32,000 nucleotides of DNA from Candidatus Electrothrix yaqonensis (GTDB taxonomy: Bacteria > Desulfobacterota > Desulfobulbia > Desulfobulbales > Desulfobulbaceae): NCBI GenBank assembly GCA_047651235.1, contig CP178758.1:60001-92000 (forward strand), written 5' to 3'. A program made the position numbers and the translations under genes. This document shows, in pieces, positions 2,532 through 23,983 of this stretch. The notes beneath the pieces were generated by a model, which made no database searches, was not told the DNA's origin, and was given only the letters and a program-made list of their open reading frames with translations. Position 1 is the stretch's first letter. Each line of letters starts with the position of its first letter.

Positions 2532-5486
2532 TCACGGTAGAAACACCACCGGGAAGTCAGGCACGTTCTCCGGGATAACCACTGCCGGAGTCTGCTGATG
2601 GTCGGTTAGCTCCGGCACCCGATGGGCGAGATAGGTATTAATCTCTGAGAGACGAACAGCCTTGTCCTGCACATAGTCGGCATCACCTTGCATGGCTTCA
2701 AGCAGGGCCAGAGTAAAGGCCCCGTGTTTCCACGCATCCCGCTCCTGCGCTGTCTGGTTGCCGGTGGTGGCGGAGAGCACCACTACCCCGTTCTCTGTCG
2801 CGCTCAGGTCGTTGATGATCTTAGTGATGTCCACTGTGTCGTTGCCACGTATCCCTGCCGCCTTGCCGGAATAGCAGGTATCAACAAAGAACAGGGCCTT
2901 GCCACGCAGCCGGGCCACTGTTCTGCGGATGGCATCGTAGGATACTGCGGAGCTGGTATAGCGCCACGGCTTAAAATCCTTGGGCAGAAAGTAGTAGTCG
3001 CCATGCGAGTCCAGCTTGCCGTGCCCGGCCAGAAAGACCATTGCCACGTCGTTGTCCGTGGTCTGCTGATCAATCCACTCCAGCCCTTGCAGTACCGCAT
3101 CCTGATCTGCCTGCTCATTGGTGCGCAACCGGGTCTTAACCTCACGGTAGAGCTTGCCCGGCCCGGCCTGCTGCTTCATCAGAGTAACAAAGGCCCGTGC
3201 ATCTGCACTGGCATACTGGAGATACCTCTTGTCCGTCATCTTGCCTTTGTCATCCACCACAAAGTTGATTGCCGGCGCATCATAGTCATCCACGCCCACA
3301 GCCAGCAGGTAGAGCACCGGCTTGAGGGCATCCTTGCCGCCCAGCCAGCGCAGACGGATTGTTGATGTCTTGTCCGTGGACACGGCCTGCCCGTTGTCAG
3401 CAAGCAGGCTGAGGGTCATGTCCTTGGCAGGCAGGGTCACGTCCAGACTGCCTTCCCATTCCGCATCCCTGCGCCGCTCCACTGTGGCCCGATGGCGGGG
3501 CCGGTTGTCAACCATGACTTGCAGGGCCGTGATTGGTGGGCCGCCGTGCGTGCGCACCCGGTAACGCAGAGTCAGGGTGGGGCTGCGGAAGCTGCTGTTG
3601 TTAGCCGGGGCGAGCAGCTCAATAACAGGGGGTTGGGCGTATTGAAACGGCGTGGTAACCTGCCTGCTGCTCCGCCCTCTTGCCGCATCAGCACGGGCCA
3701 CGGCCTTGTCTTGGTCCAGGGTCTCCAGCACCTTGGCGACCACATCCGGGCGGTAAAAGTGTTCGCGGAACTGGGCAGCCGGGAAGAAGTCGGCCAGCCG
3801 GTCTTTGCCGTTGTTGACCTGCCAGCCGATCAGGCTGTCCCCGCCCGGACTGCTGTCGTACCAACCCTTCGGAGTCCAGGCCACCCAATGCTCTGCGTCC
3901 CAGGTGTCCCTCTCCCTGTTGACAGAGACAAACAGGGAAAGCAACGGCTCACCATCGCTGAGGCGGTACCAGCGGATAGTGCCGTCCGCAAAGGCGACCA
4001 CTGCCAACTTCCCATCTCCGCTGATATTCACGCCCCAAGCCGTACCCGGCACCTGCTGCTGCCAGACCTCCCTGCCCTGGCGGTCAAAGTAGCGCAGCGA
4101 CCAGTTCGTGCCAAGGAGGAAATGCTGCTTGTCCGGGGCAATGGCCAGGCTGCGGGAGCGTTCGTAGTCCTCTAAGGCCAGCGGTTTGCCTTTGAGGGTG
4201 GGATTATATTCGTTCTTCCAATCCTCAATCTTCAGACCGGGGGCCGTAATGCGCGGAGTGTGCAGAGGATTATTGAGACTGCCTTCGCATTCGCCCTTGC
4301 GGAGCTGCCGTTGACTCAGGTCAAAGCAGACCGGCTCATTGCCCCATACCTTCAAACCAAAGCTGACCTGCCTACCGTCTGCGCTGACTTGAAACTTGTC
4401 ATAGTGAGCGCGCAAGTCCGGGAGATTGGGCCGCAGGTCAAAGAGCTTTCCGCCTTGGCTGTCATAGCGGAGCAGGGCCGGATCAAAGGTACCGACCAGC
4501 AGGCTGCCGTCGGCAAGGGGCTTGAGGTCCATCACCGCATTGTCAGAGGCCCGCCAACTCGTGCGTTGACCACGCCCCTTATTCGCCCAGCGAAACACGG
4601 GACAGGTGCTGCCATCATAATACCTTCCCCCGGCAAAGAGGAAGCTGCCGTCCGCAGACCAAGTGACAATGGAAATACTGCCGTTATCGATGCCCTCTGT
4701 GTCTACGGCATAGAGCTGAGTGAGCTGCCGGGCATCCAGCACCGAGACTGCGGTGCTATCCTGAAAGCCGATGGCAAGCCGGTCGCCTGTGGGATGAAAG
4801 GCGACCGCAAAGGGTTCCTTGCCGCCTTGGGTGGCTGCCTGCTGCTCCTTGCGAAAGGAGGCTGTGTTCATCCGACCCTCCACGCTATAGCGGCGGATCT
4901 GGCCGTCATCGCAGGTAGTAACCAGACTGCGGCTGTCCGGGCTGAAGGTGCAGCCGTAGCTGGAATCGCCGTAGTCATGGTCAGTAAAGGCAGAATTAAA
5001 CCCCTTTCGGCTATCGTACACCCGCAGCCCTGCTCGCCCGACCATAGCAGCTAAGTAGCGTCCGTCTGGAGAGACGCAGAGATGGCTGATAGCATCCCCC
5101 AGCCCTTCAATGCGCTGGCGCATCTGGCCCGTGGCCCGGTCAAGGATGTAGATGGAATCATCCCAATCCCATCCTCCCGTTGCCAGCCAGTCCCCTGCCG
5201 GGTCCATAGCCACGGCATAGAGCTTGCCCTCATTACCCGGCCCGCTGGGCAGGCGAAAGGTGCGGAGCAGGCTGCCGTCCTTAGCATCCCACAGGCGCAG
5301 GGTCTTGTCCTCCGAGGCTGAGGCGAGCCAACGGCCTTGGGCATCCGTGGCAATGCGGTTGAGCATGGCAGTGTGGAAGCCGGTTTCCAGGCGCAGCATG
5401 GGCGCGGTGGATGGTTCGCTGGCTTGGGTGGTTGCAGTTACAGCGGCCAGCAGCAGGGGCAGCAACACGGCAAGAAGGTATTTCAT
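2532..5486 (-). CDS. secreted WD40-repeat (beta-propeller) protein with a C-terminal caspase-like peptidase C14 domain
   Basis: The N-terminal signal peptide is MKYLLAVLLPLLLAAVTATTQA. Repeated WD-type units are present (SASEDKTLRLWDAKDG, ADGTIRWYRLSDG). The C-terminal domain carries the caspase dyad motifs VFLAGHGK (His) and FFVDTCYSGK (Cys). GGAGA lies 7 nt upstream of the ATG. Confidence 0.85.
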   Translation of the reverse strand: MKYLLAVLLPLLLAAVTATTQASEPSTAPMLRLETGFHTAMLNRIATDAQGRWLASASEDKTLRLWDAKDGSLLRTFRLPSGPGNEGKLYAVAMDPAGDWLATGGWDWDDSIYILDRATGQMRQRIEGLGDAISHLCVSPDGRYLAAMVGRAGLRVYDSRKGFNSAFTDHDYGDSSYGCTFSPDSRSLVTTCDDGQIRRYSVEGRMNTASFRKEQQAATQGGKEPFAVAFHPTGDRLAIGFQDSTAVSVLDARQLTQLYAVDTEGIDNGSISIVTWSADGSFLFAGGRYYDGSTCPVFRWANKGRGQRTSWRASDNAVMDLKPLADGSLLVGTFDPALLRYDSQGGKLFDLRPNLPDLRAHYDKFQVSADGRQVSFGLKVWGNEPVCFDLSQRQLRKGECEGSLNNPLHTPRITAPGLKIEDWKNEYNPTLKGKPLALEDYERSRSLAIAPDKQHFLLGTNWSLRYFDRQGREVWQQQVPGTAWGVNISGDGKLAVVAFADGTIRWYRLSDGEPLLSLFVSVNRERDTWDAEHWVAWTPKGWYDSSPGGDSLIGWQVNNGKDRLADFFPAAQFREHFYRPDVVAKVLETLDQDKAVARADAARGRSSRQVTTPFQYAQPPVIELLAPANNSSFRSPTLTLRYRVRTHGGPPITALQVMVDNRPRHRATVERRRDAEWEGSLDVTLPAKDMTLSLLADNGQAVSTDKTSTIRLRWLGGKDALKPVLYLLAVGVDDYDAPAINFVVDDKGKMTDKRYLQYASADARAFVTLMKQQAGPGKLYREVKTRLRTNEQADQDAVLQGLEWIDQQTTDNDVAMVFLAGHGKLDSHGDYYFLPKDFKPWRYTSSAVSYDAIRRTVARLRGKALFFVDTCYSGKAAGIRGNDTVDITKIINDLSATENGVVVLSATTGNQTAQERDAWKHGAFTLALLEAMQGDADYVQDKAVRLSEINTYLAHRVPELTDHQQTPAVVIPENVPDFPVVFLP

Positions 5487-7449: not shown

Positions 7450-8538
7450 TCATTCAGATAGGCCATAGGATGCCAGGATCTCCTGCCATTCAGGACTTTC
7501 AAGCTCTTTGAGAAGAGCAATATTGATTTCTTCCAGCAAACGGGAATTGCGCGGGGCACTGAAGCTGTAATAATCATTGCCGAACCTTTGGTCATGCAGC
7601 CGAATTTTATTGTCCAACTTCTTCTCCTGAAGAAGATACTTGAGAATGGGCTCATCATAGACAAAGATATCATTTTTTTTAGAGGTCAGTGCTGCGAGCC
7701 CTTCTTCCAGAGTTTTGAAAGCTCTAAAACCAACGTTATGATTGCGTAAGAATTCTGCACTGCTGCTTTTCTTGACTGTCCCTATACGGAACCTTTTCAA
7801 ATCATCAACGGTCTCAATCTGTAAGCCGATTTTATTCACCGTCAGAGTCGCAGCGATATTTGCGGTAAACCCGGAAATAATAATCACAGCCGTAAACATC
7901 CAGATGATCCCGATCAGCCGGCCCAACAGGGTGCGCGGGGACTTGTCTCCATAACCGACCGTTGTCATGGTCACCGCAGACCACCAGATACCATGCCCCA
8001 AGCCTTTGAACCCGGTGCCGAACTCATCATTCTGTCTTTTTTCCGCCAGCCACACCAGGAAGCCGAAGATGAAGATCACGATGAACAGCAGGCCGATTGC
8101 CTCTAAAAAACCAATAGAAAAAAAATTGCTCAGAAAAGCATAGATAGAATTCTCCCGGTCCGCATCCACTGCCAAGGCCAGGCTTGCAACGTAAAAGGGG
8201 TGGGTGAAATCCATTTTTTCCTCCCGTTCACTGGTGATGGAAAACGGATTAATGGACAAATCAACCCGACCTCTTTCAGTGGCTTTCAACAGTTCAAGGA
8301 AATTATACTCTTTATATTCGTAGGGAATATCCAACTGTTCTGCTATCCTCTCCCACAAATCAATGGACAGACCTGTATACCCGCTCTCTGACCTTTCCGA
8401 CTTCATGATAAAGGGCGGAGTGATTTTGACGCCGATGATCAAAGGGGATTCCACAGATTCAGATTCCGCAGGTTCGGTTTGCGCCTGAGCAGTGACTGAG
8501 CCCAGCAGGACAAGGAAAAGGATCAGGAGTTGTTTCAT
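7450..8538 (-). CDS. GluR0-type ligand-gated potassium channel (a periplasmic binding domain split by a K+ channel pore)
   Basis: It has a signal peptide, then an S1 lobe, then M1 (FLEAIGLLFIVIFIFGFLVWL), then a pore helix with the K+ selectivity filter TMTTVGYGD, then M2, then an S2 lobe. This is the prokaryotic ionotropic glutamate receptor architecture. Confidence 0.85.
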   Translation of the reverse strand: MKQLLILFLVLLGSVTAQAQTEPAESESVESPLIIGVKITPPFIMKSERSESGYTGLSIDLWERIAEQLDIPYEYKEYNFLELLKATERGRVDLSINPFSITSEREEKMDFTHPFYVASLALAVDADRENSIYAFLSNFFSIGFLEAIGLLFIVIFIFGFLVWLAEKRQNDEFGTGFKGLGHGIWWSAVTMTTVGYGDKSPRTLLGRLIGIIWMFTAVIIISGFTANIAATLTVNKIGLQIETVDDLKRFRIGTVKKSSSAEFLRNHNVGFRAFKTLEEGLAALTSKKNDIFVYDEPILKYLLQEKKLDNKIRLHDQRFGNDYYSFSAPRNSRLLEEINIALLKELESPEWQEILASYGLSE

Positions 8539-8618: not shown

Positions 8619-8890
8619 ATTTCCAGCAGGCTCCTGATTTACCTGCCTGATATCGTATGGCTCCGCCTGATGCAGCATAACCTGCTGGAAGGCAATCCGC
8701 CAACCGTGTTTATTACTTCTACTTTGTCAACCATAACCTTTTGATCTATTTGTAAAAACTTCTTGCAATATCCGGATAAAGTTGTATCTTTCATTAGGAA
8801 AATTTTATCGCTTTTTGATCAAGATAGCACCTGATAACAGCTATCAAAAAAATACCCGTCAATCGCCCTGATTATAACTTTATTCTTTTT

Positions 8891-9342
8891 ATGAACGCTC
8901 CCAGCCCCGAAAAAAGAAGTCCCCATGACAAATTCTTTGAGTTGACCGGCATCGCCCGGCAACTTACGTCTTTTCACGAAAGATATCATCTCTTTTTTAA
9001 GAGACATACAGTAAGTTTGTCAGATAAAGCATTCCAATACTTGAAAGGTTTATTCCAGTCTGACAAAAAAACATGGAACGTATGGAGGAAAAGGTTCCGG
9101 GCGTTAAATATGAGCCCCTCCAGTATTTTCTTTCCGACTCGAACTGGGATTGGCGTCCTGTAAACAACCAAGTAGCTAAAGATGCAGATAAACTTTTAGG
9201 AGGAAAGGAAGATAGCGCTCTTTTAATTGATGAATCCGGGATACCCAAAAAGGGTAAAATGTCTGTTGGGGTTTCTCGTCAATGGTGCGGGCAGCTTGGT
9301 AAAACCGACAACTGTCAAGTAGTTCTACTTTGGCGATCATAA
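8891..9342 (+). pseudogene. IS701-like transposase, N-terminal fragment, frameshifted at an A7 run
   Basis: ORFs 8891-9163 and 9073-9342 together read ...GLFQSDKK/NMERMEEKVPGVKYEPLQYFLSDSNWDW...LLIDESGIPKKG, but only if the frame shifts by -1 at A7 (9065-9071). Homology to copy 2 stops at 9322/9323. Confidence 0.8.
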
Positions 9343-9438
9343 ACATAACTAGCTTATTTTTATTAAGTATTTAAAAACCCCTGTTTTTAGTATTATTAAT
9401 ATTATTAAATAGTTAATGGTATGGTCACCAAAGTAGAA
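9323..9438. mobile_element. 116-bp AT-rich MITE-like element with IS701-like terminal inverted repeats, nested in IS copy 1
   Basis: It starts TTCTACTTTGGCGATCATAAAC and ends GGTATGGTCACCAAAGTAGAA. The first 11 bp are a perfect inverted repeat, and about 18 of 22 positions match overall. The ends resemble the termini of the full IS. The interior has no coding potential. Confidence 0.7.
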
Positions 9439-9879
9439 TTAGTTGTCAGACGTGAGGTTAAGTCCCCGAAAAAAATTAAATATAGCCTAAGTAATGCGGA
9501 AAGTAACACGTCAACAAGACGACTTGCATATATGCAAGCTCAACGATATTGGGTTGAACGGCCATTTCAGGATGCAAAAAATGAATGTGGAATGGGTGAT
9601 TATCAGGCTCGGGGATGGCTGGCTTGGCATCATCATATGACTATGGTCATGATGGCCATGTTGTTTATGGTCGAGCAACGATTATACCATCAAGTCGGTG
9701 TCCCGTTATTGAGTTGCGCTGATATAACAACATTACTCAAGTCAATTCTTCCACGTCGAGATGTAAACGAAGATGAAGTTATAAGACAGCTTTGTCAACG
9801 GCATGAAAAGAGGCAAGCTTCGATTGATTTCGCATATGAGAAACAACGGAATTGCAAATTATTACCACAGCCTTTGTGA
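9439..9879 (+). pseudogene. IS701-like transposase, C-terminal fragment
   Basis: The sequence LVVRREVKSPKKIKYSLSNA...RYWVERPFQDAKNECGMGDYQARGWLAWHHHMTMVMMAMLF is identical at protein level to the 3' ORF of copy 2. The track ORF's ATG at 9421 lies inside the MITE. Confidence 0.8.
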
Positions 9880-10054
9880 GTGCCAAAGTAGAAGTAACAG
9901 CCTGTGAAAAATATTATTATTAAAATTGTTCTGAGTGCTTTTAATAGGTCGCTGAGGAAAAAAATTGTGCTGCGCATTTCCCGGTCTCCCGCATTGAGAT
10001 GATGATGGCTTTTTCAGCAAAACGCCGTAAGCCGCAGGAAATCTTTGTCAGATG

Positions 10055-11137
10055 CTATCGACGACTTTTCCTGTGCTTCATCACAGCCTTACAATGCTTA
10101 CTGAACTGCTTGTCTTTTATTCTTTTTTCCAAGTAGGACATTTCATTATACGTAGTTTCTCTGGTCATTTTTAAATAATTATGATAGCGGTCCGGAGATA
10201 ATTGACCTTGCTTGACAGCATCTAAAACGGCGCATCCTTTTTCTGCAACATGAGTGCAGTCGTTGAAATGACATTGTTCAGACAGACTGATTATGTCAGA
10301 AAATGTCTGATCAAGGCCAGTTTCTGCTCCAAATATGCCAAGCTCCCGCATGCCTGGCGTATCGATTACCATTGCCCCTGAATCTAACTTGATCAATTCT
10401 CTATGTGTTGTGGCATGTCTGCCTTTACTCTCTCTTTTGCTGACTTCTTTGGTTTTGTATCGGGATTCGCCTAACAGGTTGTTGAGTAAAGTTGTTTTGC
10501 CTACCCCTGATGATCCCAGCAGGCAATATGTCAAATTTGGCTTTATCAATCTGATAACATCGCGTAAACCGGATTCATCTTCATTATTAAAGGGAACCGT
10601 TCGGATATCGGGCATGATTTTATGAATTTCTTCGGTTCTGCAGGCTATATCTTCAGCTGAAAGCAAATCACTTTTGCTCAGCAGGACGACTGGTCGGATA
10701 TTGCTCTCGTTAACCATGACAAGATAACGTTCAAGTCGTCTGAGGTTAAAATTTTCATTCAACGATTGAACAATGAATGCAACATCGATATTGGCTGCAA
10801 TTAACTGAAAATCAACTTTCTTCCCTGGTGTTTTCCTTTTCAGCAAAGATTTTCGTGGTAATATTTCGTGAATTATAGAGAAAGTATTTTCATCATAAAA
10901 ACTGACAAAAACCCAATCACCTACCGTAGGATAGTCTACAGGGGAAGAAGCATTGAATAGTATTTTTCCGATCAATTCCGCTGCAGTGTCTACCTCTCCA
11001 TTACTGACGGTATAGCTGTCTTTGTGAACAGCGACCACTCTGGCGACTTCAAAGTTTTCCGGGTTGCTCTGCGAAGCAGCTTCCAGGTACCACTTATCAA
11101 AGCCAAAATCTTTTAAATTGTTCGGTATATTATTCAT
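10055..11137 (-). CDS. rsgA: RsgA/YjeQ-type circularly permuted ribosome-biogenesis GTPase
   Basis: It has an N-terminal OB-like region, then G4 LSKSD, then G1 GSSGVGKTTLLN, then G3 DTPGMRE, then the zinc knuckle CHFNDCTHVAEKGCAV. The gene is AT-rich relative to the backbone. Confidence 0.85.
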   Translation of the reverse strand: MNNIPNNLKDFGFDKWYLEAASQSNPENFEVARVVAVHKDSYTVSNGEVDTAAELIGKILFNASSPVDYPTVGDWVFVSFYDENTFSIIHEILPRKSLLKRKTPGKKVDFQLIAANIDVAFIVQSLNENFNLRRLERYLVMVNESNIRPVVLLSKSDLLSAEDIACRTEEIHKIMPDIRTVPFNNEDESGLRDVIRLIKPNLTYCLLGSSGVGKTTLLNNLLGESRYKTKEVSKRESKGRHATTHRELIKLDSGAMVIDTPGMRELGIFGAETGLDQTFSDIISLSEQCHFNDCTHVAEKGCAVLDAVKQGQLSPDRYHNYLKMTRETTYNEMSYLEKRIKDKQFSKHCKAVMKHRKSRR

Positions 11138-11329
11138 GTCGGATTAGACACCTGAATTCGAGTTCAACGTTGTGTTATCGAGGCGCATAGTGCACGTCTT
11201 GATCAACGTAAAGATCAGCAGACCTGAAGCACAAGTTTTCCAACTTTAAAAGAGGCAGCAAAGATGTACATGCCGTGCCCAAAGAAAGCGCGTCCTTGGG
11301 ATCTGCTGTGTTTTTTGGTTAACTGATTG

Positions 11330-12457
11330 TTATTCATTGATTATCTTTAAGTCTGATACCGCTTCTAATTGCCAAGAAGAACCTTTTCTTTCTAATATTC
11401 CCTGAACCTCAAGCTGTGCTCTTGACTTGTGAGCTTCGATTGCCAGAAGATACTGATTTACACCTAGTTCAATTTTTACATTTATATTCCCATAATTTTC
11501 ATGGTGATGTTTTAATATTATAATTCTCTTGCCAGATTCACTAGTTGGATCATTACTGCGAAGATTAACAACTTTTCCTAATATAAGTGAGTTTTCCGGG
11601 TCAACTTCTTTCATTTTATTTGCTGCATATTTAAGATATGAAAATTCTTCATCACCAAATGCTTGTACTTTAAAGTTTGATACATCTTCAGATGGAGGTA
11701 AACTGCTCGCCCAGTGTACAGCTAACTCTAAAGGTGTCTCAAGCTCTTCTCCCATTTCAACAATAGCTTCGCACATTCTTGAATTGAATCCGTATTGATA
11801 ACCGGAAGCCAAAATATCTGGATCTTGTTTAGAGATAGCTTCATTTGTTTTTTGAATTCCACGTATAATTCTTTCTATGATTCTCCTTTCGATAGGGGGA
11901 AAAAACATATCTTGTTGTTTAAATTCTTCGACAACTGGTGATTCAACAGAAAATCCAAAACTCCCGTGAAAAGTATGACCAAAACGTATTTTTTTTGCCA
12001 TGTTATAGCCAGTTCTTGATGGGGTTTCATGATGGGGAAGTGCTTTTTTTTCGGAGCAAGCGCTATAGACAAAAAGATTGCGAAGGCCATTTACTTCTTT
12101 TTTGGCAACTTCTAATGGGATGCTAAAAGGAAAATTATCATCGGGGGAGATTTTGACAAAGAACTTGTCGATATTAAGACTTTTTAAGATTCTTGACAGT
12201 GCAGCCGGTTCTATTTCGTAAAGATTTGACAATAAAGAAAAAACATCATAAATTCTTTTAGTCAAGTCCTCGAAATCATTAGAACTAGGAAGAAACACTT
12301 CTAAGGGGTTACCTGAATCACCCTCCGGCCCCTGAAACACTGAAAGTTTTCGGTTTGTACAAGATATTTCCAGCCAACCTTTAGACCTTAAAAAAGATTT
12401 TAAATCATAAAGAGATATCCCTTGAACAATATCAAGAGGAGAATTCGAGTTACTCAT
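11330..12457 (-). CDS. hypothetical protein (375 aa), no recognisable motif
   Basis: This is a long ORF in an AT-rich segment. Its ATG overlaps the stop of the upstream DUF4365-like gene (ATGA at 12454-12457), which implies translational coupling. I found no NTPase, HEPN, nuclease or TM motif. Confidence 0.7.
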   Translation of the reverse strand: MSNSNSPLDIVQGISLYDLKSFLRSKGWLEISCTNRKLSVFQGPEGDSGNPLEVFLPSSNDFEDLTKRIYDVFSLLSNLYEIEPAALSRILKSLNIDKFFVKISPDDNFPFSIPLEVAKKEVNGLRNLFVYSACSEKKALPHHETPSRTGYNMAKKIRFGHTFHGSFGFSVESPVVEEFKQQDMFFPPIERRIIERIIRGIQKTNEAISKQDPDILASGYQYGFNSRMCEAIVEMGEELETPLELAVHWASSLPPSEDVSNFKVQAFGDEEFSYLKYAANKMKEVDPENSLILGKVVNLRSNDPTSESGKRIIILKHHHENYGNINVKIELGVNQYLLAIEAHKSRAQLEVQGILERKGSSWQLEAVSDLKIINE

Positions 12458-12966
12458 GATAGCTCCCCTTTTTTTATTTTTATTATTAAATCTTTTATTT
12501 TGGAAGGAGTTAGAAGTTGTTTCCTGGGGATTTTAACTCTAATTGTTGCCTGGTTTTTCGTTGGTTCTCCATTTACTGAAAAATAATAGCAACTATTTTT
12601 TATAGTTAAAGACTCTTCAGATACACAAATCCATTCTTTCTTATCTTTTGGTAGACACATGACGACAAGGAAGCATGGAATGCTAGAATTATTCTTACGA
12701 TATAATAATTTGTTGTAAGTATCTGCATCTAAATCATAGATGACAGAATTGTCATCTTTTCCCCAGTTAATTGTCGCTTTTAACTGACAATCAAAAATAC
12801 CCCCCATGTCCATTCTCTTTCCTCCAATCGAATCAACTCTACGTACAGTGAGATCAACACCATAGTCTTGACTTACTATGTCAAATGTAGCCCCCGCACG
12901 AGATACAATAGCGCCTACCCAAGACACACTTATTGATTCTTCGATTGATTGAATCGGAATGGTCAT
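12454..12966 (-). CDS. DUF4365-like PD-(D/E)xK-fold protein (putative nuclease)
   Basis: The sequence SIEESISVSWVGAIV...DYGVDLTV...FDCQLKAT...IPCFLVVM follows the pattern I associate with DUF4365. That pattern is an N-terminal Glu helix, D-Y-G-V-D (D34, D38), then Q61-L-K63. The gene is very AT-rich. Confidence 0.65.
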   Translation of the reverse strand: MTIPIQSIEESISVSWVGAIVSRAGATFDIVSQDYGVDLTVRRVDSIGGKRMDMGGIFDCQLKATINWGKDDNSVIYDLDADTYNKLLYRKNNSSIPCFLVVMCLPKDKKEWICVSEESLTIKNSCYYFSVNGEPTKNQATIRVKIPRKQLLTPSKIKDLIIKIKKGELS

Positions 12967-13039
12967 TTGTATTTTATTATTTAGAAATTGTTATATCTGC
13001 TAATTTAATCGTTTAGCAGCGGTACTTAATCAGAAATCA

Positions 13040-16000
13040 TCACTTCGTTTCAGGATTACCTGTATCTTTCTGCGGAACCAGCTTCAGCCAGCCCTCCCGC
13101 ACTTCCTGCGGTCTGCTGAAATCAGCAGATAAGCTATATTGATCCACCCCCTGTTCCTGCCAGTCATCTCCGTCCTTTTCCACCCAGACCCATGCATAGC
13201 CCGGTTCTTCCGGTAGGGGCAGTTCGATTCCGCCGCTCCGTGTGAGCACAGGGGCGGTGAGAAAGGTTACTTCAATGGACTGCAGAGCATCCGCATACTG
13301 TTCCGGGGGAAGGATCTCCTCTTTGACCGGCAGGATACCTGTAGTAATGTGCAGGGTTCCCAGAGGGTCCATCAGCAGAGTCAGGGTGTGGGCCGGATCG
13401 CGGAAAGCCTGATACAGGGTCGGGTGCTCCTTATCCGGTTCTTTAGTACTGTAAAAGGCAGTGTCATCCGGGCCTTCCAGCCAGTAGCCCAACAGACCGT
13501 CATTCTGCTGTTTATGATTTCCCAGCCTGATCGGGATGTTGACAGCGTCAAACCCTTCTGTTTCCCGCTGACTATCTTTCTGTTGAATATCCTCCCGAAA
13601 CACACTCCAGTCCTGGTTGATCACCGGCAGCCCCTGCAGCTCAAGGTTCAGTGAGGCTCTGACAACGGCAACAGGTCGGCCTATGAGTAAGGCGGTTCCC
13701 TTGTACCGGGAAAAGTTCCTCGGATTAATCCGGTCCAGAGCCGTGTTGATGGTTCTGAGAAACTGGCTGAATCCGTTGTCACCCCCCTGATCCCCGGTTC
13801 CGGTTGTTTTGATACGCTGCACGGTTTCGCGCAGACAGGAATCCGAAATCTGTTCCGGCTCTTCCAGGCCGTCTTTTCCCGGAGCCGGGATCCAGTTCTG
13901 CTGGTGATCAATGATCCCAAGGGCTTTGCCTTTGCTGTCGTACACTGCCAGGGAGCGTTCCAGATTATTGGGCATCAGCCAGCCGCAGACAGCGGTCTGT
14001 TCAGGATGATTGCTGCTCTCTTCCGGTCTGTTTTCCGAGGCATCCGGCCGGGACGACAGCCAGCGGAAATCAATCCGGGCAGGCTGCATACAGCGGGGTG
14101 GCAGCACAATCCTGTCCGGTTCCGGCGCGGTTATAGTTTCCGAGCGGATAACTTCTTTCCAGCGCAGCTCTTTTCTCTGACCAAAGGTATCGATCAGCCG
14201 CAGACGGCTTATCCGCATCTTCCCTGCCCGCAGGGGAGCAAAGCTGTTCAACGGCTCCGGGGCATTGATGATACTGTCACCCACCAGCTGTTCCACCCTT
14301 TCAGTAAAATTTCGGTACTCCTGAAAGCCGATAGGCTCCCGGACAGCCAGCTGAAAGGTTTGTTTATGCATGAGCAGCGCATCGTTCAGACCGCTCAGAG
14401 CCTGGGAAAGGCTCTGCATCTTGTCCAGTTTTTCCCCCGCTTTGCGGACAAAATCATCAAATTGCTCATTCTTCTGCGCAGATGTATCTTTGAGCCGTGA
14501 TTCTACTTTCTCCCGCAGCAGTTCTGCCGCATACGGGGTCAGCAGACTTCGACCACTGTAGATATACCGTATCTCCGGAACCTTTTTCCCTTCTCTGGCT
14601 GTCAGGTCTGTTGCATGCTCGTTAAAAGTATAATCTCCCGTAAAATAATCCGGCGGGTATTTTTTCTGTTCACTGTCCAGGGTTTTCTGCAGCTGGATTT
14701 TCACCTGCCATTCCAGCAGAAAGGGATGCCAAGGTTGCTGCTGCCATTCAGCTGCCGCAGGCAGCTTCTCCCGAATACGGTCAATACCGTCAGCTTCCCC
14801 GTTGCGGAGCAGGTTGCTGAAACAGGCGGATGCAGCTGCTGCGCCGGTGACCTGCAGAGGGCCTGACGGCCGGGCCTGATCGGTGCTCACCACCTCATCC
14901 CCGTCGAGCAGAATGACCGGTTCCACGGGCTGCCAGTACCGGGAAGCCGGTTCTGACTGCAGGGTAAAGGTGGTTTTGTGTTCCTGGTTGAACGCCTCAA
15001 GTCCGGAGCGCAGCGTCTCTATCCGGTCCCCGATTTCTGCCTGCAGCCACCAGCTTTCTGCAATTCTGCGTTCCAGGGGAGCAAGATCCCGCTGCTCTAT
15101 AAAGACTCTGACGGTATCAATATCCAGATGATCATCCGAGACCGTCTCCGGCGGATAGGAACAGAGCATATATTTATACCAGTCAGCAAAGGTCCGCCTG
15201 CGTATGGATTTAATTTCCGCCTGCTGTCTGTCGTATTCTTTTTGCCGGGCATTCAGGGCAGCAAGCCGGGCAAGCAGGTCCGGGGACAGCGGTGTCTTTG
15301 CCTGCCGCTCTTTCTCCTGCTGTTCCTGTTGCTTGGAAAACACGAGCCACTGCAGACCGGCCTGTTTGGCCATGAAGCCCTTTTCGTGCCGGAGTTCATG
15401 CAGTTTGTACGGGGCATCCGGGTTGACGCCGGTAAAGATTTCCGGCTGAATCAGGGCTTCGAACTGCTGTTCTTTTTTCTTTTTCTCTTCCGGACTGCCG
15501 GACATGGCAGCAGCCAGATACGCAGACAGAGCCTCCGGCCCGGTACTGCCCACTGCAACCTTGACCCAGCCGTCAGATTGATCCGGATGCAGGGCCAACG
15601 GATCGGGGTTCAGTTTATCAGACTTCAGCCTGTCTCTGCTGATTTTTATCCGTGCGCAGCACAGGAGGTAATTGTCTTTTCCGGCCAGCTCCTCCGGCGC
15701 AACCTGCCAGCCGAATTCCTCTGCAAGATAGCTGACCGGATCATCGCCGGAATATTTCTGCAGTTCCCTGGACAGATGGTCTGCTGCTGGGTCGCTGTAC
15801 CAGCCGATAACCTCGTATTCCACGCTGTCCCGAAGGTTCTCGGCCGCAGCTTCCGGATCATGAAAGCCGAACACACTTAAGCAGTTGGGGTAGAAGGCGG
15901 CAAAGGAGGGCTCACCATATCCTACTGCCGTGAGATAGGGATAATATTCAGCCGTGCTAGCCGAGGACTGCAGCTGCTCCAGCCATTGCTCCAGGGGCAG

Positions 16001-16444
16001 GGCTCTTCCCATGTACCGGTACGGCGGATCATGCGGTCCTTTGGGCTGGCACGGCATAATGATGCTTTCCGCATAGCTGCCTGCCGGATACAGAAAATTG
16101 CTTTCCACCACCCACTGTTTTATGCTGCCGTCCCCGGTGCGGTGGGTGATCAGCCAGCGGTCAGGGACTGCGGGAAAGCTGACCCCATTCTTTTCTTCCC
16201 GGCCTGCAGTCAGTGCATCAGGAAGCTGCCAGTGCAGATGAATGCCGGGCTGGAGAAAGAGATTTCTGTTCTGAAAGGGCTGGGAGTTGAACTCCTCGCT
16301 GACATACGCGCTATTTGGATTGATATCCTGCATTCCGTCGGAATACGGCAGTTGGCTGAAATCAACCATGCTTTCAACAACCCGTCTGGAACGGGTAAGG
16401 TATAAGGCATCCAGGTGGGTGGGGATCAGAAGAAAATTGCTCAT
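13040..16444 (-). CDS. large hypothetical protein (1134 aa), no recognised catalytic motif
   Basis: This is an uninterrupted 3.4-kb ORF with backbone-like composition. The central region is charged and coiled-coil-like (KKKKEQQFEAL, QQEQQEKERQAKT, ARQKEYDRQQAEIKSIRRR). It has no Walker A motif, no signal peptide and no TM helices. All antisense ORFs across it look like shadows. Confidence 0.8.
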   Translation of the reverse strand: MSNFLLIPTHLDALYLTRSRRVVESMVDFSQLPYSDGMQDINPNSAYVSEEFNSQPFQNRNLFLQPGIHLHWQLPDALTAGREEKNGVSFPAVPDRWLITHRTGDGSIKQWVVESNFLYPAGSYAESIIMPCQPKGPHDPPYRYMGRALPLEQWLEQLQSSASTAEYYPYLTAVGYGEPSFAAFYPNCLSVFGFHDPEAAAENLRDSVEYEVIGWYSDPAADHLSRELQKYSGDDPVSYLAEEFGWQVAPEELAGKDNYLLCCARIKISRDRLKSDKLNPDPLALHPDQSDGWVKVAVGSTGPEALSAYLAAAMSGSPEEKKKKEQQFEALIQPEIFTGVNPDAPYKLHELRHEKGFMAKQAGLQWLVFSKQQEQQEKERQAKTPLSPDLLARLAALNARQKEYDRQQAEIKSIRRRTFADWYKYMLCSYPPETVSDDHLDIDTVRVFIEQRDLAPLERRIAESWWLQAEIGDRIETLRSGLEAFNQEHKTTFTLQSEPASRYWQPVEPVILLDGDEVVSTDQARPSGPLQVTGAAAASACFSNLLRNGEADGIDRIREKLPAAAEWQQQPWHPFLLEWQVKIQLQKTLDSEQKKYPPDYFTGDYTFNEHATDLTAREGKKVPEIRYIYSGRSLLTPYAAELLREKVESRLKDTSAQKNEQFDDFVRKAGEKLDKMQSLSQALSGLNDALLMHKQTFQLAVREPIGFQEYRNFTERVEQLVGDSIINAPEPLNSFAPLRAGKMRISRLRLIDTFGQRKELRWKEVIRSETITAPEPDRIVLPPRCMQPARIDFRWLSSRPDASENRPEESSNHPEQTAVCGWLMPNNLERSLAVYDSKGKALGIIDHQQNWIPAPGKDGLEEPEQISDSCLRETVQRIKTTGTGDQGGDNGFSQFLRTINTALDRINPRNFSRYKGTALLIGRPVAVVRASLNLELQGLPVINQDWSVFREDIQQKDSQRETEGFDAVNIPIRLGNHKQQNDGLLGYWLEGPDDTAFYSTKEPDKEHPTLYQAFRDPAHTLTLLMDPLGTLHITTGILPVKEEILPPEQYADALQSIEVTFLTAPVLTRSGGIELPLPEEPGYAWVWVEKDGDDWQEQGVDQYSLSADFSRPQEVREGWLKLVPQKDTGNPETK

Positions 16445-16725: not shown

Positions 16726-17904
16726 ATGGGAAAACTGTCAGGTGTACTGTCAGGTGTAATTGCATTATGTATGATTCTTTTTTCTGCCGCTGCCGGTGCA
16801 GCGAAGCCTGCAGCACTTATGTATGTGGCGAATGAAGGGGAAAACAACGTCATGGTAGTTAATCTTGAAACGGAAGAAATTCTTGCCACGATACCGACCG
16901 GATATTTTCCTCACGCTATTGTTTTCGCAGCAGGTAAGGCATACGTGAACAACAGAGGTTCTGAGCATCTCACTGTAATTAATACGGAGACCCTTGAGGC
17001 AGGTGAAGATATTCCCCTGCCGAACGTTTCTTTCCAACTGGCTCTTTCTCCTGACGGAAAAACAGTTGCGGTCTCCTACAAAGATGCGCTCAAGGTCTCT
17101 CTCATAGATGTGGCGTCCGACACTGTCTCCACACTCCCGCTCAGTGAAACTCCCGAAGCTCCAGAAAGAGGTTTCCCTGAAAAACCGATGAAACATCCTC
17201 ATTGGTCTAAACACGGCAGATATCTTTATGTACAAAACAATATAGATGATCTGATCATTAAGATAGACACTGACACCTTTACTGTTGCTACTGAAATTCC
17301 CATGCCCGGCTCTAATCACGACCTCGTGGCAAGCTCGAACGACAAAGTTCTGTACGCTGTCAATCAGGATACCAATGACCAAACTGAACCGATGCTGACC
17401 GTGATTGATACTGAAACCGACAGTGTTATCGAGAATATCACCATTCCTCTTTCTCCCGATGAAACCGGCTTCGGTCACCATGGAGGACTGACCCGGAACG
17501 GAAAAACCTTTTACTTCTGCAATGAACGCGGATACAGCGTGTCTCTTGTTGATACCGTTAACATGGAGGTCAGGAAGTCTCTTGAGGTCGGCAAAGGGGC
17601 GGGACATCCGGTCTTTTCAAAAGATAACAAAAAAGCCTTCATTATCCCGCATAAAGATAATATTATCTCGGTGATTGATACTCATTCCGAAGAGATCATT
17701 GAAGAGATTGAAGCTGGCGAAGCTGGTATAAAACCTAAAATAGCTCATAGTTCCTATATTACCAATGACGGTAAATACCTGTACGTTATTAATGTGCCTG
17801 ACCAGAATGTTGTGAAAATCAATACCGTGACGTTAAAGGTGGTGTCAACCATCCCCATAGGTCAAAAAGCATTGGCCTTCGCTGTTACAAAAGCGCAGCT
17901 GTAA
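16726..17904 (+). CDS. secreted YVTN-family (YncE-like) beta-propeller repeat protein
   Basis: It has the signal peptide MGKLSGVLSGVIALCMILFSAAAGAA and AAGGAGA upstream. Roughly 40-residue units recur (YVANEGENNVMVVNLETEEILATIP, YVNNRGSEHLTVINTETLE, LYAVNQDTNDQTEPMLTVIDTETD, YVINVPDQNVVKINTVTLKVV). Confidence 0.8.
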   Translation: MGKLSGVLSGVIALCMILFSAAAGAAKPAALMYVANEGENNVMVVNLETEEILATIPTGYFPHAIVFAAGKAYVNNRGSEHLTVINTETLEAGEDIPLPNVSFQLALSPDGKTVAVSYKDALKVSLIDVASDTVSTLPLSETPEAPERGFPEKPMKHPHWSKHGRYLYVQNNIDDLIIKIDTDTFTVATEIPMPGSNHDLVASSNDKVLYAVNQDTNDQTEPMLTVIDTETDSVIENITIPLSPDETGFGHHGGLTRNGKTFYFCNERGYSVSLVDTVNMEVRKSLEVGKGAGHPVFSKDNKKAFIIPHKDNIISVIDTHSEEIIEEIEAGEAGIKPKIAHSSYITNDGKYLYVINVPDQNVVKINTVTLKVVSTIPIGQKALAFAVTKAQL

Positions 17905-17999: not shown

Positions 18000-19612
18000 G
18001 TTACTTCTACTTTGGCACTCACAAAGGCTGTGGTAATAATTTGCAATTCCGTTGTTTCTCATATGCGAAATCAATCGAAGCTTGCCTCTTTTCATGCCGT
18101 TGACAAAGCTGTCTTATAACTTCATCTTCGTTTACATCTCGACGTGGAAGAATTGACTTGAGTAATGTTGTTATATCAGCGCAACTCAATAACGGGACAC
18201 CGACTTGATGGTATAATCGTTGCTCGACCATAAACAACATGGCCATCATGACCATAGTCATATGATGATGCCAAGCCAGCCATCCCCGAGCCTGATAATC
18301 ACCCATTCCACATTCATTTTTTGCATCCTGAAATGGCCGTTCAACCCAATATCGTTGAGCTTGCATATATGCAAGTCGTCTTGTTGACGTGTTACTTTCC
18401 GCATTACTTAGGCTATATTTAATTTTTTTCGGGGACTTAACCTCACGTCTGACAACTAAATGCCATTTTCTTGCTTCAGCCTCTTTACCGTCCCATAGCC
18501 ACTTCCCTATGCAGAATATCCACAATGAGTTTGCCTTTGGTCGTATTTCGAACTTTCACCCGTTTCCATGCATTATTAAGTTGTTGCATCACCCATTTAT
18601 CAACACGTATGCCTTCTTTTTGTGCTTCGAGCTTGCTCGGGCGTTTCCCTTTGTTCGATTTTGCTTTTGGAACGACAGGGTTGGGATCTTCAATATAAAT
18701 TATAAATTATCTGGTCTTTATGAACATCTGCCATGAACTTTTCATCGTTATCATCAAGTTTCCGAAGAAATTGAGAATTCTTCCCGTAAAAACCATCACA
18801 ACCCACCCAGTTAAAACGAACGCCATTCTTTCGCGCATGGAAGACCATGTCAAGAGCCTGTTCATGCTTTGTTTTGAAAACAATTTTGTCGGCGGGAATC
18901 TTAGCCTTAAGACAACGTTCCTTGTCATCCGTCCAGCTTTTCGGTAAATACAACCGAAAATCAATCGGCGTTGAAAAGCGACCATATCCCAAAGTTGCAA
19001 ACACTACTACTTGACAGTTGTCGGTTTTACCAAGCTGCCCGCACCATTGACGAGAAACCCCAACAGACATTTTACCCTTTTTGGGTATCCCGGATTCATC
19101 AATTAAAAGAGCACTGTTTTTCCTCCCTCCTAAAAGTTTATCTGCATCTTTAGCTACTTGGTTGTTTACAGGACGCCAATCCCAGTTCGATTCGGAAAGA
19201 AAATACTGGAGGGGCTCATATTTAACGCCCGGAACCTTTTCCTCCATACGTTCCATGTTTTTTTGTCAGACTGGAATAAACCTTTCAAGTATTGGAATGC
19301 TTTATCTGACAAACTTACTGTATGTCTCTTAAAAAAGAGATGATATCTTTCATGAAATGACGCAAGTTGTGGGGCGATGCCGGTCAACTCAAAGAATTTG
19401 TCATGGGGACTTCTTTTTTCGGGGCTGGGAGCGTTCATAAAAAGAATAAAGTTATAATCAGGGCGATTGACGGGTATTTTTTTGATAGCTGTTATCAGGT
19501 GCTAGCTTGATCAAAAAGCGATAAAATCTTCCTAATGAAAGATACAACTTTATCCGGATATTGCAAGAAGTTTTTACAAATAGATCAAAAGGTTATGGTT
19601 GACAAAGTAGAA
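18000..19612 (-). mobile_element. IS701-family-like insertion sequence, copy 2 (full length, 1613 bp, transposase decayed)
   Basis: It has the same termini as copy 1 (GTTACTTCTACTTTGGCAC at 18000; GTTGACAAAGTAGAA ending at 19612). It carries the whole transposase region, split over four reading frames. Confidence 0.85.
18019..19438 (-). pseudogene. IS701-like DDE transposase disrupted by at least three frame changes
   Basis: Four segments were identified. They are 19438-19166, 19256-18690, an unlisted frame of about 18700-18497 (IYIEDPNPVVPKAKSNKGKRPSKLEAQKEGIRVDKWVMQQLNNAWKRVKVRNTTKGKLIVDILHREV) and 18525-18019. Together they make about one IS701-type transposase. The breaks are at T7 19258-19264, at the 7-bp tandem duplication 18694-18707, and near 18500-18560. 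Confidence 0.8.
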
Positions 19613-20170: not shown

Positions 20171-23100
20171 ATGAAGAAAGCACATAAGTACAGAAACTTC
20201 GCCTTGATTGCTGCATTGACTTCCGGTTTTGTTTTTCAAAGCGGATTTCAGTCAGCAAGCGCAGGTGGTTCCTGGTTTTCCAAAGCCCGACAGGAACAAC
20301 AACTGCAACCGAAAAGTCCTATGGCAAGGACAGCCGGTTCAGTTCCGATGACCAGCGGTGACATTGGTACCACTGTCTTTGATATGGTTATTTCGTTATA
20401 TAATAATCCGACAATACCTGGTGAGCAGCAACCCTATGAGAAAATTATCCGTTTCTGGGCCGATGCAGTTTACGAACAGTCCAACGGTGCTTTTAAACTC
20501 GGCAAGATACGGATCTTCAGGAATGGCCTCTACGGTTCCCTGGCCGATGTCGTTTGGAATAACAGTGAATGGCCGAGAGCATACCCGTCAGGATTCGGTG
20601 TCATGCAGCTGCCTATTATTTTTGGCGATATTTTCCCTGACGGCTGCGGATCAGGTTGCGATTATGACTTTCTCGAATCTGCAACTCACCAAAGGGGTGG
20701 AGGTTACACCCTGGCGCATGAATTCGGACATTATGTGCTTGGTCTCTATGATGAATATCGGGGCAGTGCCGGGACCAGCCCGTGGATAAGTACACCTCTG
20801 GCGGGAGATACTCCTGTTGTCCCCTCAATCATGCATAACCAATGGAATGCGTTGGGAGGGGATTTTACTTGGCTTAATCATTCTACTTCCAACAACTATC
20901 AAGCTGATACTGCGCAAGGAAGATGCTATGGGGCGGGCAGCTGGGAGGTTATGACCCGGCCGATAGCAGACGATCCCAAGGTCGGTCAACAGGCTACCTT
21001 GGCTCAGCGGGTGCATTATACAGGTCTTGACGGTAATGAACCTACTGCCGCCGACAGCTGGATGCGTCTGGAACTTCCGGGCCAGCAAAGTAATGCCCGC
21101 AACCAGCTTGATATTATCTGGATGCAGGACGATATTGAGATGCAGATCGTGTTTGATCGTTCGGGCAGTATGCTTGGTGATCCCCTGAATAATGCAAAGC
21201 AGGCAGCTCTGACGCTGGCGGATGAAGCCAAAAACAGCAATACCTCCTTGGGGCTTGTATCGTTCAGTAACACACCTGTACAGGATGAGCCTGTCGGCAC
21301 GCCAACAGAGGAAATCAAGCTGGCAATCGATGCGTTGGAGGCAGGAGGCTGTACCGCGATGTTCGATGCAGCCAAGTTGTCTCTGGATAATCTTTCTGCA
21401 GCAGATAACGCAAAACTCGTTTTCCTGCTGAGCGACGGAGAAGATAATGTCTCGGATATTCCGGCAGGTTGCGAGGATGAATGTCAAGATCGTCTGTTCT
21501 GTTCAGCGGCCCCTGTCCAGGATGCCTGTCAGGAATGTTTGAGGAATAAAGTAATAGGGGCGTATCACGGTACAGATATCCCCCTCAATACCTTTGCCTA
21601 TGGTCAATTTGCACCGGATGGTACCCTGCGTCAGCTGGCTGAGGCTACAGGAGGTATTTTCCGTACTACACCGACTGAGCTGGCGGAGCTGCAGAGCGCA
21701 TTTCTGGCTGCAAAAGCAGCACAGACCGCCTCTGTTGCAGTTCTTCAGAAAAAAGCCGCAACCCCGGCAGGCAGTTCAATCGAATTCCCATTTGCTGTGG
21801 ACGGCACAATGAAAAAGTTTGCTGTTTTTGCAAACTACAAAGGGACAGACGATGCTGTCAACTTTACGCTTAACGGACCGGACGGTCCGGCAGCAGACTT
21901 TGCCTGTACAGCGGTCTCTGATGCTGTAAGCTGCACCAGCATGATCGCTGAATCAGACATACAGCTCGGTGCGTGGAGTCTCATTGCTGAAAACAACACC
22001 TCCGAATCCATTGACGTAGGTGTCGATATCCTTGCGGATCCCAAATCTGAACGAACCTATGATCTGGTCGTCTCATCTTTGAACGGTACAGAAGTAACCT
22101 ACCCGAATCCTATCCTGCTGACAGCCGTTCCCGGCAAAGGCCTGCCCATCACAGGAGTGAGCATCTCTGCTACGGTTACAGATCCTGACGGCATTGTAAC
22201 ACCTGTTACCCTGAAAGATACCGGAGAGAATGGAGACGGAATCGCCGGGGACGGTGTCTATTCTGCCATCTTGGATTACACGCGGGACGGCAATTATCTT
22301 GTCAGACTTACTGTAGACAACCATGAACAGAAAGCCGAATTTACCGTCAAGGGTTATGCACCTTCGGCTGCTGAAGATGGAAGTATGCCTACGCCGGAGT
22401 ATCCTCCAATCACGGAAAATTTTACCCGCACAGCAAGTGCACAGGTAGTTGTTTCCGGTTTTGCGGACGATGATCATCCTGATACAGCACCGGGAACGGA
22501 TGTTACACCGGACAACAGCGATATGCCGGGCCGGATAGATACCGCAGGAGACCTTGATGTCTTCACGGTCGCAACAACAGACTATGATTATCTGGTCTTT
22601 CGGGTGACTGATCTGGCATTAGGCATGGAAACCCGGCTCAGAATATTGGCAGAGGACGGGACAACAGAAATTGCAGGCGCGACTATGGAACAAATGTCAA
22701 GCGATGCAGAATACGTGGCATTAACGGTTCCGGTAGACGGAAATGCAGAACTCCATGCTGAGGTCAGTCATGCCAGTGGCGGTACCGGCACATATCACTT
22801 CAGTGCAGGTTCCCGAATCTTCAGGGAGCCGACAATCGGGGTGAATGCCGAGATAACCGGCATGATCATTGATAAACCCCAGGAAGATCATAGAGACGTT
22901 GCCTCGTTTGAAATAAAAGGTGCGACCGGTATCAAAGCGGCTACAACATATGCCGCTGCTGGCGAGATCCCCTTGAAGTTCCAGTTCGGCGGTGATGACG
23001 GGCCGATATACAGCTTCACGGGAGCCGACTTTGATGCTGCAGGTAACCGCTTGGTCTATAGCGATGCTGACGGCAATATGGTACGGTGTATCTTCAACAA

Positions 23101-23362: not shown

Positions 23363-23983
23363 TTAGGAACGGGAATTAAATAACTACGGGAATCAAAGCC
23401 GTCCTGACGGAACAGCGGCATAATTCCACTTCGGCAGAAACTCGTCGAATTGAATTTTCATATTTTCTTTAAAACCGTCAGCCGTTTTGCGGCCTGTCTC
23501 GAAGAGGAATTCAGATTTTCCATGTGTCGTCCACCAGTTCCGAATACAGGCGCACCCGAACTCGGAGGTGTCACCGTTTGTCCCTAATCCCGCCGTGTGA
23601 TTTTTCAGCACCGCGAAAAATGCGTCGTCAAGGCCGACGGCGGTCGAGAGGACGGATTTACGTCCCCCGCCCGGTTTGCGGATTCGTTCTTCTTTTTCAG
23701 GCAGAGGCTGTTTCAGCTCATTCATCCCGCGACGGACCCGGTCAGAATCACACCGCAACACGTCGCATATATACGTTATGCCGCCGTATCCGAACTTTTC
23801 CGCTTCAACTGCGGCGTATCGACGACGGTCTTTTTCAGACAGGCTGCCGTAAAAATTACGCATTCGCGTTTCTATCTCAGGAGAATATGTCTTTATCTTC
23901 ATAACCGGATGAGAATAAACGCAACTATGAAATTGTCAATGACCTGTCAGCAAGTTCCGTTGTTATTAAATTTTCATTCCTTA
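23363..23983 (-). mobile_element. ISAzo13-family-like IS remnant (internally deleted)
   Basis: The imperfect terminal inverted repeats are TTAGGAACGGGAATTAAATAAC (23363-23384) and GTTATTAAATTTTCATTCCTTA (23962-23983). They enclose a 169-aa chimeric transposase remnant. Confidence 0.7.
23393..23902 (-). pseudogene. ISAzo13-like transposase with large internal deletions
   Basis: The N-terminus (LSEKDRRRYAAVEAEKFGYGGITYI...RIRKPGGGRKS) is joined directly to a mid-protein piece (GDTSEFGCACIRNWW) and to the extreme C-terminus (FDEFLPKWNYAAVP). That is about 170 aa of an expected 400+ aa. Confidence 0.7.

Follow-up and report, generated by a model that had tools for sequence, protein, structure and literature searches.

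The effector domain of SPARDA systems (DNase-associated short prokaryotic Argonautes), DREN, is a DUF4365 domain in which residues D41, Q60 and K62 of NbaSPARDA, and Q62 and K64 of TmuRE, are required for activity (PMC12205087; PMC10810196). Isolated DREN is a monomer and is inactive; it becomes a collateral DNase and RNase only once filament formation joins four copies (PMC12205087; PMC10810196). A DUF4365 domain is also found in Divona, an experimentally active anti-phage cassette of Vibrio chromosomal integrons. Payne et al. took genes lying within bacteriophage exclusion (BREX), defence island system associated with restriction-modification (DISARM) and type I restriction-modification (RM) loci as the source of 145 'phage defence candidate' systems (bioRxiv 10.1101/2024.01.29.577857), and their supplementary tables list one of these, PDC-M02, as cassette CAS_00021 (FAM_01850>>FAM_00842); a literature search found no mention of the name PDC-M02 in the main texts that it covered. 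Here we compare these systems with a block of four minus-strand genes, A to D, at positions 10055-16444 of a 32,000-nucleotide stretch (the window) from the cable bacterium Candidatus Electrothrix yaqonensis (assembly GCA_047651235.1, contig CP178758.1, positions 60,001 to 92,000). The middle two genes, B and C, form a mobile pair that corresponds to PDC-M02, and the block as a whole is a mosaic in which A and D are unrelated to that pair.

An initial annotation of this DNA had read the four genes as one candidate defence or conflict module, made up of a nuclease-fold protein and unrecognised partners on mobile, compositionally foreign DNA and matching no named system. Its description of the layout was accurate in every particular: open reading frames (ORFs) of 1134 (A), 170 (B), 375 (C) and 360 (D) amino acids follow one another on the minus strand, with a gap of 73 bp between A and B, a 4-bp overlap (ATGA) between B and C, and a gap of 192 bp between C and D. 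What survives of the defence reading is the part that concerns B and C. These two genes alone are the defence-type module, and A and D have no part in it.

Identity and linkage of the B-C pair

The B protein (12454-12966, minus strand) matched the PADLOC model PDC-M02A (PDLC04290) with an E value of 8.5e-58, residues 3-167 aligning with model positions 2-166 of 170. C (11330-12457, minus strand) matched PDC-M02B (PDLC04333) at E 3.1e-111, with residues 11-374 aligned to positions 10-378 of 379. A PADLOC search had been suggested in the initial annotation, and its outcome removes the statement made there that no named system fits the locus. Both window proteins match the candidate's hidden Markov models over their full length, the order, strand and adjacency of the genes are the same, and the overlap is one that is kept family-wide; we saw no structural difference, and the window pair is the cable-bacterium copy of the candidate. 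Judged by sequence, then, B-C is a member of the catalogued PDC-M02 family, a candidate defence system. B also matched Pfam DUF4365 (E 2.4e-21; B residues 10-161 against profile positions 1-136 of 139), in agreement with its earlier assignment as a DUF4365-like protein of the PD-(D/E)xK type. A and C had both been called orphans. Neither has a match in Pfam or NCBIfam, and to that extent the term holds, but for C it is superseded by the PDC-M02B match.

Linkage of the genes was examined in three collections, comprising genomes (one per species), IMG/VR viral contigs and metagenomes, with 177 loci in total. The genome scan, which used an alignment of C relatives as the query, returned 80 loci from many phyla. 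In 75 of these the gene directly upstream of C, on the same strand, was a relative of B, and 47 of the 75 kept the 4-bp overlap; three of the five loci without an upstream B relative end at a contig edge. Among the 17 viral loci from IMG/VR, 16 had B upstream of C. Relatives of A or D were found within 10 kb of C in none of the 80 genome loci, nor were any found in the 17 viral B-C loci, and the proposal of a single four-gene module was abandoned on the basis of the three scans and of 12 contig look-ups, 10 of which returned a locus. Conservation of neighbourhood, which had been put forward as a way to judge the proposal, is thus a property of the B-C pair (97 loci, in many phyla and in phages) and not of the four-gene set; homologues of the 170- and 375-amino-acid proteins occur together, whereas those of the 1134-amino-acid protein occur with neither.

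The pair is present in Candidatus Electrothrix gigas, Candidatus Electronema aureum and a Thermodesulfobacteriota metagenome-assembled genome (MAG), with C proteins 58-70% identical. Its surroundings are nif-related genes and toxin-antitoxin (TA) pairs in E. gigas, sugar-nucleotide genes and dnaB in Electronema aureum, and a DUF87 ATPase gene in the MAG. In the Electronema aureum loci (L006 9451-10004; L007 3590-4140) the DUF4365 partner, beside an intact C, is frameshifted into two overlapping frames, the called gene being 117 amino acids long; the pair may be decaying here. In the MAG (L008/L013 11263-14117), genes for a 402-amino-acid protein and a 548-amino-acid DUF87/HerA-like ATPase lie in touching frames directly downstream of B-C, and may be another defence-type pair.

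Spread and mobility of the pair

Several observations indicate that the pair moves as a unit. In 40 of 43 loci C had a lower GC content than the DNA flanking the pair (median difference 8.7 points). Relatives were found on eight plasmids. The genes for gp38 (176 amino acids) and gp37 (381 amino acids) of Leptospira phage LE1 stand in the same order as B and C. Over 91% of its length, gp37 shares 28% identity with C, and in the matching IMG/VR locus (L096) a B relative lies upstream; the LE1 pair differs from the window pair in being phage-borne, and it is annotated only as hypothetical proteins. A profile of C matched 4954 cluster representatives at 50% identity, 1400 of them at E <= 1e-30, and the best 150 representatives were all about 300-410 amino acids long, with no fusions. 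When the two ORFs closest to the pair on either side were tabulated for 33 loci they proved heterogeneous: they included type I methyltransferases (5), MmeI/Eco57I (2), PtuA (2) and HEC-01A (2), and no RsgA. Thus B-C is a self-contained two-gene cassette that is horizontally mobile.

These data also bear on a housekeeping explanation, in which B-C would be a repair or recombination pair, made up of a nuclease and a protein like the single-stranded DNA-binding protein (SSB), and the adjacent gene D would reflect ordinary core-genome organization. A nuclease together with an oligonucleotide/oligosaccharide-binding (OB) fold, predicted for C as described below, does resemble repair factors; D comes from a housekeeping family, and the flanks of the window hold ruvB and yidC-jag-mnmE. 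The genomic positions of the pair differ, however, among the three cable bacteria, its GC deficit is strong, it is carried by phages and plasmids, and no NCBIfam model calls it. Moreover, the pair is in the catalogue of defence candidates because it was found embedded in defence loci. We consider a housekeeping role very improbable.

Mosaic structure of the block

The four genes fall into three classes of codon composition. GC content at third codon positions (GC3) is 0.62 in A, 0.275 in B, 0.247 in C and 0.39 in D, compared with 0.55-0.73 in the core genes of the window. The description of the block as compositionally foreign is therefore apt for B and C (0.25-0.28); A is host-like in GC3, and also in overall GC (0.55), and D is intermediate. 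In 200-bp windows the GC content rises from about 0.36 to about 0.56 in a sharp step at the stop codon of A (~13040-13100).

The borders of DNA similarity coincide with those of the genes. In blastn comparisons with the other cable-bacterial loci and the Thermodesulfobacteriota MAG, similarity around the pair was confined to window positions 12982-11318, which are 65-73% identical to the loci of E. gigas (L004), Electronema aureum (L006) and the MAG (L008). The shared DNA consists of both genes and about 15 bp on each side, and similarity ends there; these limits define a transferable B-C unit at 11318-12982 on the minus strand. DNA similarity for D was restricted to 11139-10044, that is, to the gene itself. 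The families represented by A, by B-C and by D co-occurred in none of the 80 genome, 17 viral and 80 metagenome loci, nor in the 11 loci that were looked up individually. A scan for promoters and terminators gave counts no higher than in shuffled sequence, and because of this it was set aside as evidence.

The block is thus a mosaic, and would represent a chance juxtaposition of three unrelated units (A; B-C; D) in an IS-rich accessory stretch of the chromosome, where IS denotes insertion sequences. The opposing view, that all four genes encode one conflict system from a single operon, in which A would serve as a large scaffold or as the sensor, B-C would supply the nuclease with its partner, and D would be a GTPase switch, can draw on their common direction, the gaps of only 73 and 192 bp, the lack of a convincing intrinsic terminator between the genes and their inclusion in one segment bracketed by IS copies; in addition, a homologue of A adjoins BREX in one genome, and a homologue of D lies, in one genome, near cyclic-oligonucleotide-based anti-phage signalling system (CBASS) and Mrr genes. 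Set against it are the complete lack of co-occurrence in the scanned and looked-up loci, the three composition classes, the homology blocks that stop at gene borders, the membership of A in a different and strictly conserved operon, and the identity of D as a complete RsgA above the NCBI equivalog cut-off. We regard this view as extremely improbable. A smaller, three-gene unit of low GC comprising B, C and D was also considered and rejected: D differs in GC3, has a DNA homology block of its own and occurs in none of the 97 B-C loci.

Sequence and predicted structure of B and C

Residues D38, Q61 and K63 are invariant in 50 members of the B family. They correspond to D41, Q60 and K62 of the NbaSPARDA DREN domain and to Q62 and K64 of TmuRE. 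B is therefore like the SPARDA effector in being a DUF4365/DREN PD-(D/E)xK protein with D…QxK residues at near-equal positions, and its gene lies directly upstream of the partner gene, as in TmuRE-Ago. Two differences stand beside these similarities. Unlike the SPARDA nuclease, B lacks an APAZ domain, and there is no room for one, since B is 170 amino acids long and DUF4365 takes up residues 10-161. Also, C is no Argonaute: it has no Piwi or MID match in Pfam and no sequence match in the Protein Data Bank (PDB), and Foldseek returned almost nothing but OB folds; no other ORF of the window has a Piwi match. The idea that C might be a relative of Argonaute or APAZ was rejected, as neither Pfam nor PDB sequences nor Foldseek gave support for it. 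Guide-dependent recognition therefore cannot be assumed for B-C. B-C differs as well from Divona, which is a single protein uniting DUF4365 with a crr6 domain and a RecB/Mrr-like nuclease, without a separate OB-fold partner. A literature search found nothing relevant on a defence system combining DREN and an OB fold.

The AlphaFold2 model of C (mean predicted local distance difference test score, pLDDT, 87; predicted template modelling score, pTM, 0.81) consists of two regions without recognizable relatives and a C-terminal five-stranded barrel of OB topology at about residues 285-373, in which strands β1-β3 are followed by a helix and then by β4-β5. When the C-terminal ~100 residues were compared with the PDB by Foldseek, the best 50 matches were almost exclusively SSB, replication protein A and other OB folds (best E 8e-3). 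Among 74 diverse members of the C family, D97, T162, S166 and R191 are invariant and E136, H161, R196 and H343 are nearly so; C229 also belongs to the invariant or near-invariant residues, and a conserved motif reads CRFGHTFxGSFGF. These residues point to a conserved polar pocket in C, formed by H161, T162, S166, R191 and R196.

The size and conservation of C are relevant to the possibility that the pair is a TA or addiction module, in which C would continuously neutralize a toxic nuclease B and the main role would be to stabilize the mobile DNA that carries it. The tight two-gene cassette with its stop/start overlap would suit such a module, as would its patchy occurrence and low GC, its presence on plasmids and in prophages and its location among TA pairs in E. 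gigas. However, C has 375 amino acids in three folded regions, and its surface or pocket residues are strongly conserved, which sets it apart from the small labile antitoxins. The combination in Electronema aureum of a frameshifted B with an intact C fits poorly with an indispensable antitoxin, although it is compatible with one. We think an addiction module distinctly unlikely as the main role of B-C; it should be noted that one pair could both behave like a TA module and act in defence.

Proposed mode of action

From the linkage of the two genes, the catalytic residues of B and the OB fold of C, we propose that a nucleic-acid cue is sensed by C, which then licenses B or assembles it. B and C would be made in a fixed ratio through translational coupling and would form a complex. 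In this complex C would be the sensor or regulator, its C-terminal OB fold and polar pocket detecting a cue of infection, which would most plausibly be single-stranded DNA or another nucleic-acid intermediate; upon detection C would release or assemble B, the predicted effector. B, as DREN in SPARDA, would presumably be inactive alone and active once oligomerized. Active B would then degrade DNA, and possibly RNA, indiscriminately, so that phage replication would be halted and the infected cell lost. A more specific form of the proposal, that PDC-M02 is an Argonaute-free and guide-free counterpart of SPARDA in which a monomeric DREN protein, B, is oligomerized by C when C binds phage-derived single-stranded nucleic acid or a nucleotide cue, is put forward tentatively, as possible rather than probable.

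Alternatively, B-C might act in a restriction-like manner that spares the host, with C recognizing a target such as single-stranded, modified or replicating phage DNA and guiding B to it, as do type IV or Mrr-like enzymes. Such a function would accord with the restriction-endonuclease fold of DUF4365, with the predicted nucleic-acid-binding OB fold of C and with the frequent position of the pair beside or within RM and BREX loci. Yet the only characterized DUF4365 nucleases are indiscriminate collateral nucleases once activated. Furthermore, Pfam and NCBIfam searches of C revealed neither a methyltransferase nor a modification-reader domain, and no principle for discriminating self from non-self is evident. 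For B-C, restriction of this kind seems to us rather unlikely.

The reading that we favour, with moderate confidence, joins the mosaic (an orphaned A, a mobile PDC-M02 cassette and a stand-alone D) to a mechanism in which C senses and B is the nuclease. Several points weigh against it. B is tied to the SPARDA DREN domain solely through the Pfam DUF4365 model, and when PDB sequences were searched with a profile built from 50 B relatives, no SPARDA chain was recovered. The OB-fold matches of C are weak (E 8e-3 to 0.1), and its first 280 residues have no recognizable relative. Payne et al. class PDC-M02 among untested candidates (bioRxiv 10.1101/2024.01.29.577857), and known defence genes are a minority of the sampled B-C neighbours. 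Finally, A, B, C and D are co-directional with no convincing terminator in between, and co-transcription is possible. A direct sequence link between B and the solved SPARDA structures had also been sought in PDB sequences with phmmer and with profiles, at E values up to 10; these searches gave spurious matches only, and the link was dropped.

Gene A and its usual operon

A (13040-16444, minus strand) belongs to a large family without a characterized member. A protein of the cable-bacterium MAG Candidatus Electrothrix sp. YB6 is 100% identical to it. More than 800 homologues, about 40% identical over the full length and all annotated as hypothetical, come from organisms including Microcystis, Okeania, Moorena, Reticulibacter and Blastocatellia, and 94 columns of the family alignment are invariant. 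In four genomes (L001, L002, L003 and L110) A is followed on the same strand by a gene for a LamG_3-type protein and then by one for a DUF6603 protein of 1290-1495 amino acids. A small ORF lies between A and the LamG_3 gene in two of the four genomes, and in three of them a gene of 410-640 amino acids precedes DUF6603; two of the proteins so encoded have a weak metallo-β-lactamase match. The LamG_3 protein of the operon shows weak DUF2345 or H_lectin matches, and for DUF6603 a literature search found no paper. No relative of B or C was seen near an A homologue in the four genomes, one of which has A adjoining BREX.

The metagenome scan with A added 80 further loci (L111-L190), which confirmed this arrangement. 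Of the 42 loci with an extent of 3 kb or more, 41 had the LamG_3-type gene directly downstream of A, and a DUF6603 gene was present in all 30 with an extent of 8 kb or more; relatives of B, C or D were found in none of the 80. The range of the operon includes Chloroflexota, Cyanobacteria, Acidobacteriota and many metagenomes. In the window, tblastn with the partner proteins gave no matches. Since A is present at full length and its LamG_3 and DUF6603 partners are undetectable in the window, A is the intact but orphaned first gene of a widespread uncharacterized operon. The step in composition at its stop codon would fit with low-GC DNA having replaced its downstream partners.

The AlphaFold2 model of A (pLDDT 77, pTM 0.76) includes a long helical hairpin and gave no Foldseek match below E 0.1 in PDB or BFVD. 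Structure prediction, which had been recommended at the outset, was thus informative for C, where it brought out the OB fold, but gave no fold match for A. Assignment of A as a phage structural protein or other known fold was rejected, there being no PDB or BFVD match, no PHROG and no viral contig among the results.

Gene D

D (10055-11137, minus strand) encodes an RsgA-family circularly permuted GTPase, as had been recognized from its translation: it scored 176.3 bits with TIGR00157 (cut-off 100) and E 4.1e-49 with Pfam RsgA_GTPase. It resembles RsgA/YjeQ, which functions in assembly of the small ribosomal subunit, in having the full architecture of OB domain, circularly permuted GTPase and C-terminal zinc finger, the motif of which reads CHFNDCTHVAEKGC in the translation, and in exceeding the TIGR00157 equivalog cut-off. 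It differs from RsgA/YjeQ in falling under the cut-offs of two PRK equivalog models (166 versus 360 and 113 versus 483) and in having a GC content that is low for the host genome.

Relatives of D number in the thousands; they are 360-amino-acid proteins of 71-83% identity from Desulfobulbaceae and other environmental bacteria, and this subfamily is unusually uniform across metagenomes. No other named cable bacterium was represented among the best 120 relatives. Three contexts of D relatives (L010-L012) share nothing with one another or with the window, and none has A, B or C nearby. In two of the three, the GC content of the D relative is below that of its flanks, and one relative lies beside CBASS and Mrr genes. 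D is therefore a stand-alone RsgA-family GTPase outside the B-C module.

The insertion sequence bracket and the rest of the window

As had been reported, two inverted IS copies bracket the block. The left copy is at 8717-9898 and the right copy at 18000-19612. Both are degenerate and of the DDE_5 type, the left copy being recognized from inverted repeats, a transposase fragment and end sequences. Their arms are 98% identical over 607 nt and 100% identical over 460 nt, and their ends are TTCTACTTTG…CAAAGTAGAA. In the left copy, 115 bp at 9324-9438 stand in place of 546 bp of the right copy. This AT-rich segment is bounded by the terminal repeat of the IS itself (TCTACTTTGG…CCAAAGTAGAA) and looks like a derivative akin to a miniature inverted-repeat transposable element, or a nested deletion product. 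In the right copy the transposase is split over several ORFs (90, 188 and 168 amino acids), for which a programmed frameshift is possible. No match was found between the IS and the DDE_5 transposase of Reticulibacter. The bracket encloses, besides A to D, a gene for a YncE-like beta-propeller protein (16726-17904, plus strand). The outer flanks, …TTTATTAC and (plus strand) CTGTTGTTC…, have no target-site duplication in common; movement of the whole segment as a composite transposon was rejected for want of a shared duplication at the outer ends, and nothing indicates that the segment was transposed as a unit.

Outside the bracket, alr, ruvB and yidC-jag-mnmE are core genes found in the window. 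The interval from ruvB to the left IS copy holds a gene (7450-8538, minus strand) for a GluR0-like ligand-gated potassium channel, in which the periplasmic binding domain is split by the ion-channel pore. A 984-amino-acid protein (2532-5486, minus strand) has N-terminal WD40 repeats and a C-terminal caspase domain (Peptidase_C14); it is below the cut-off of the NCBIfam model 'caspase, EACC1-associated type' and resembles conflict-system proteins described from multicellular bacteria. An intergenic stretch of 69 bp at 2464-2532 shares 83% identity with another that lies close to nitrogenase-like genes in E. gigas (L004 20369-20436); a terminator or a small repeated element is possible. Just beyond the right IS copy is a gene (20171-23281, plus strand) for a 1036-amino-acid vWA protein that shows CLCA-like similarity and contains a 'choice-of-anchor X' domain. 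Further IS decay is seen at 23393-23902 (minus strand), where a 169-amino-acid ORF is a fragment of an ISAzo13-type transposase with about 28 profile positions matched. Rfam and tRNA scans detected no RNA genes in the window.

Implications

A four-gene candidate has shrunk here to a two-gene cassette that defence-finding tools have already catalogued, and for annotation the lesson is that co-directional, short-gapped genes in IS-bracketed DNA can arise by accident of rearrangement. In terms of novelty, the A / LamG_3 / DUF6603 operon, conserved across several phyla, seems the better lead than the B-C pair. The interest of the pair lies in the size of the C family and in the joining of a nuclease of the SPARDA type to a wholly different, uncharacterized partner. 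Any cue that activates B-C could supply a new trigger for a collateral nuclease, which would be of diagnostic interest. If PDC-M02 should prove to be an Argonaute-free counterpart of SPARDA, it would represent a new class of sensor for a collateral nuclease, spread across thousands of bacterial lineages, prophages and plasmids.

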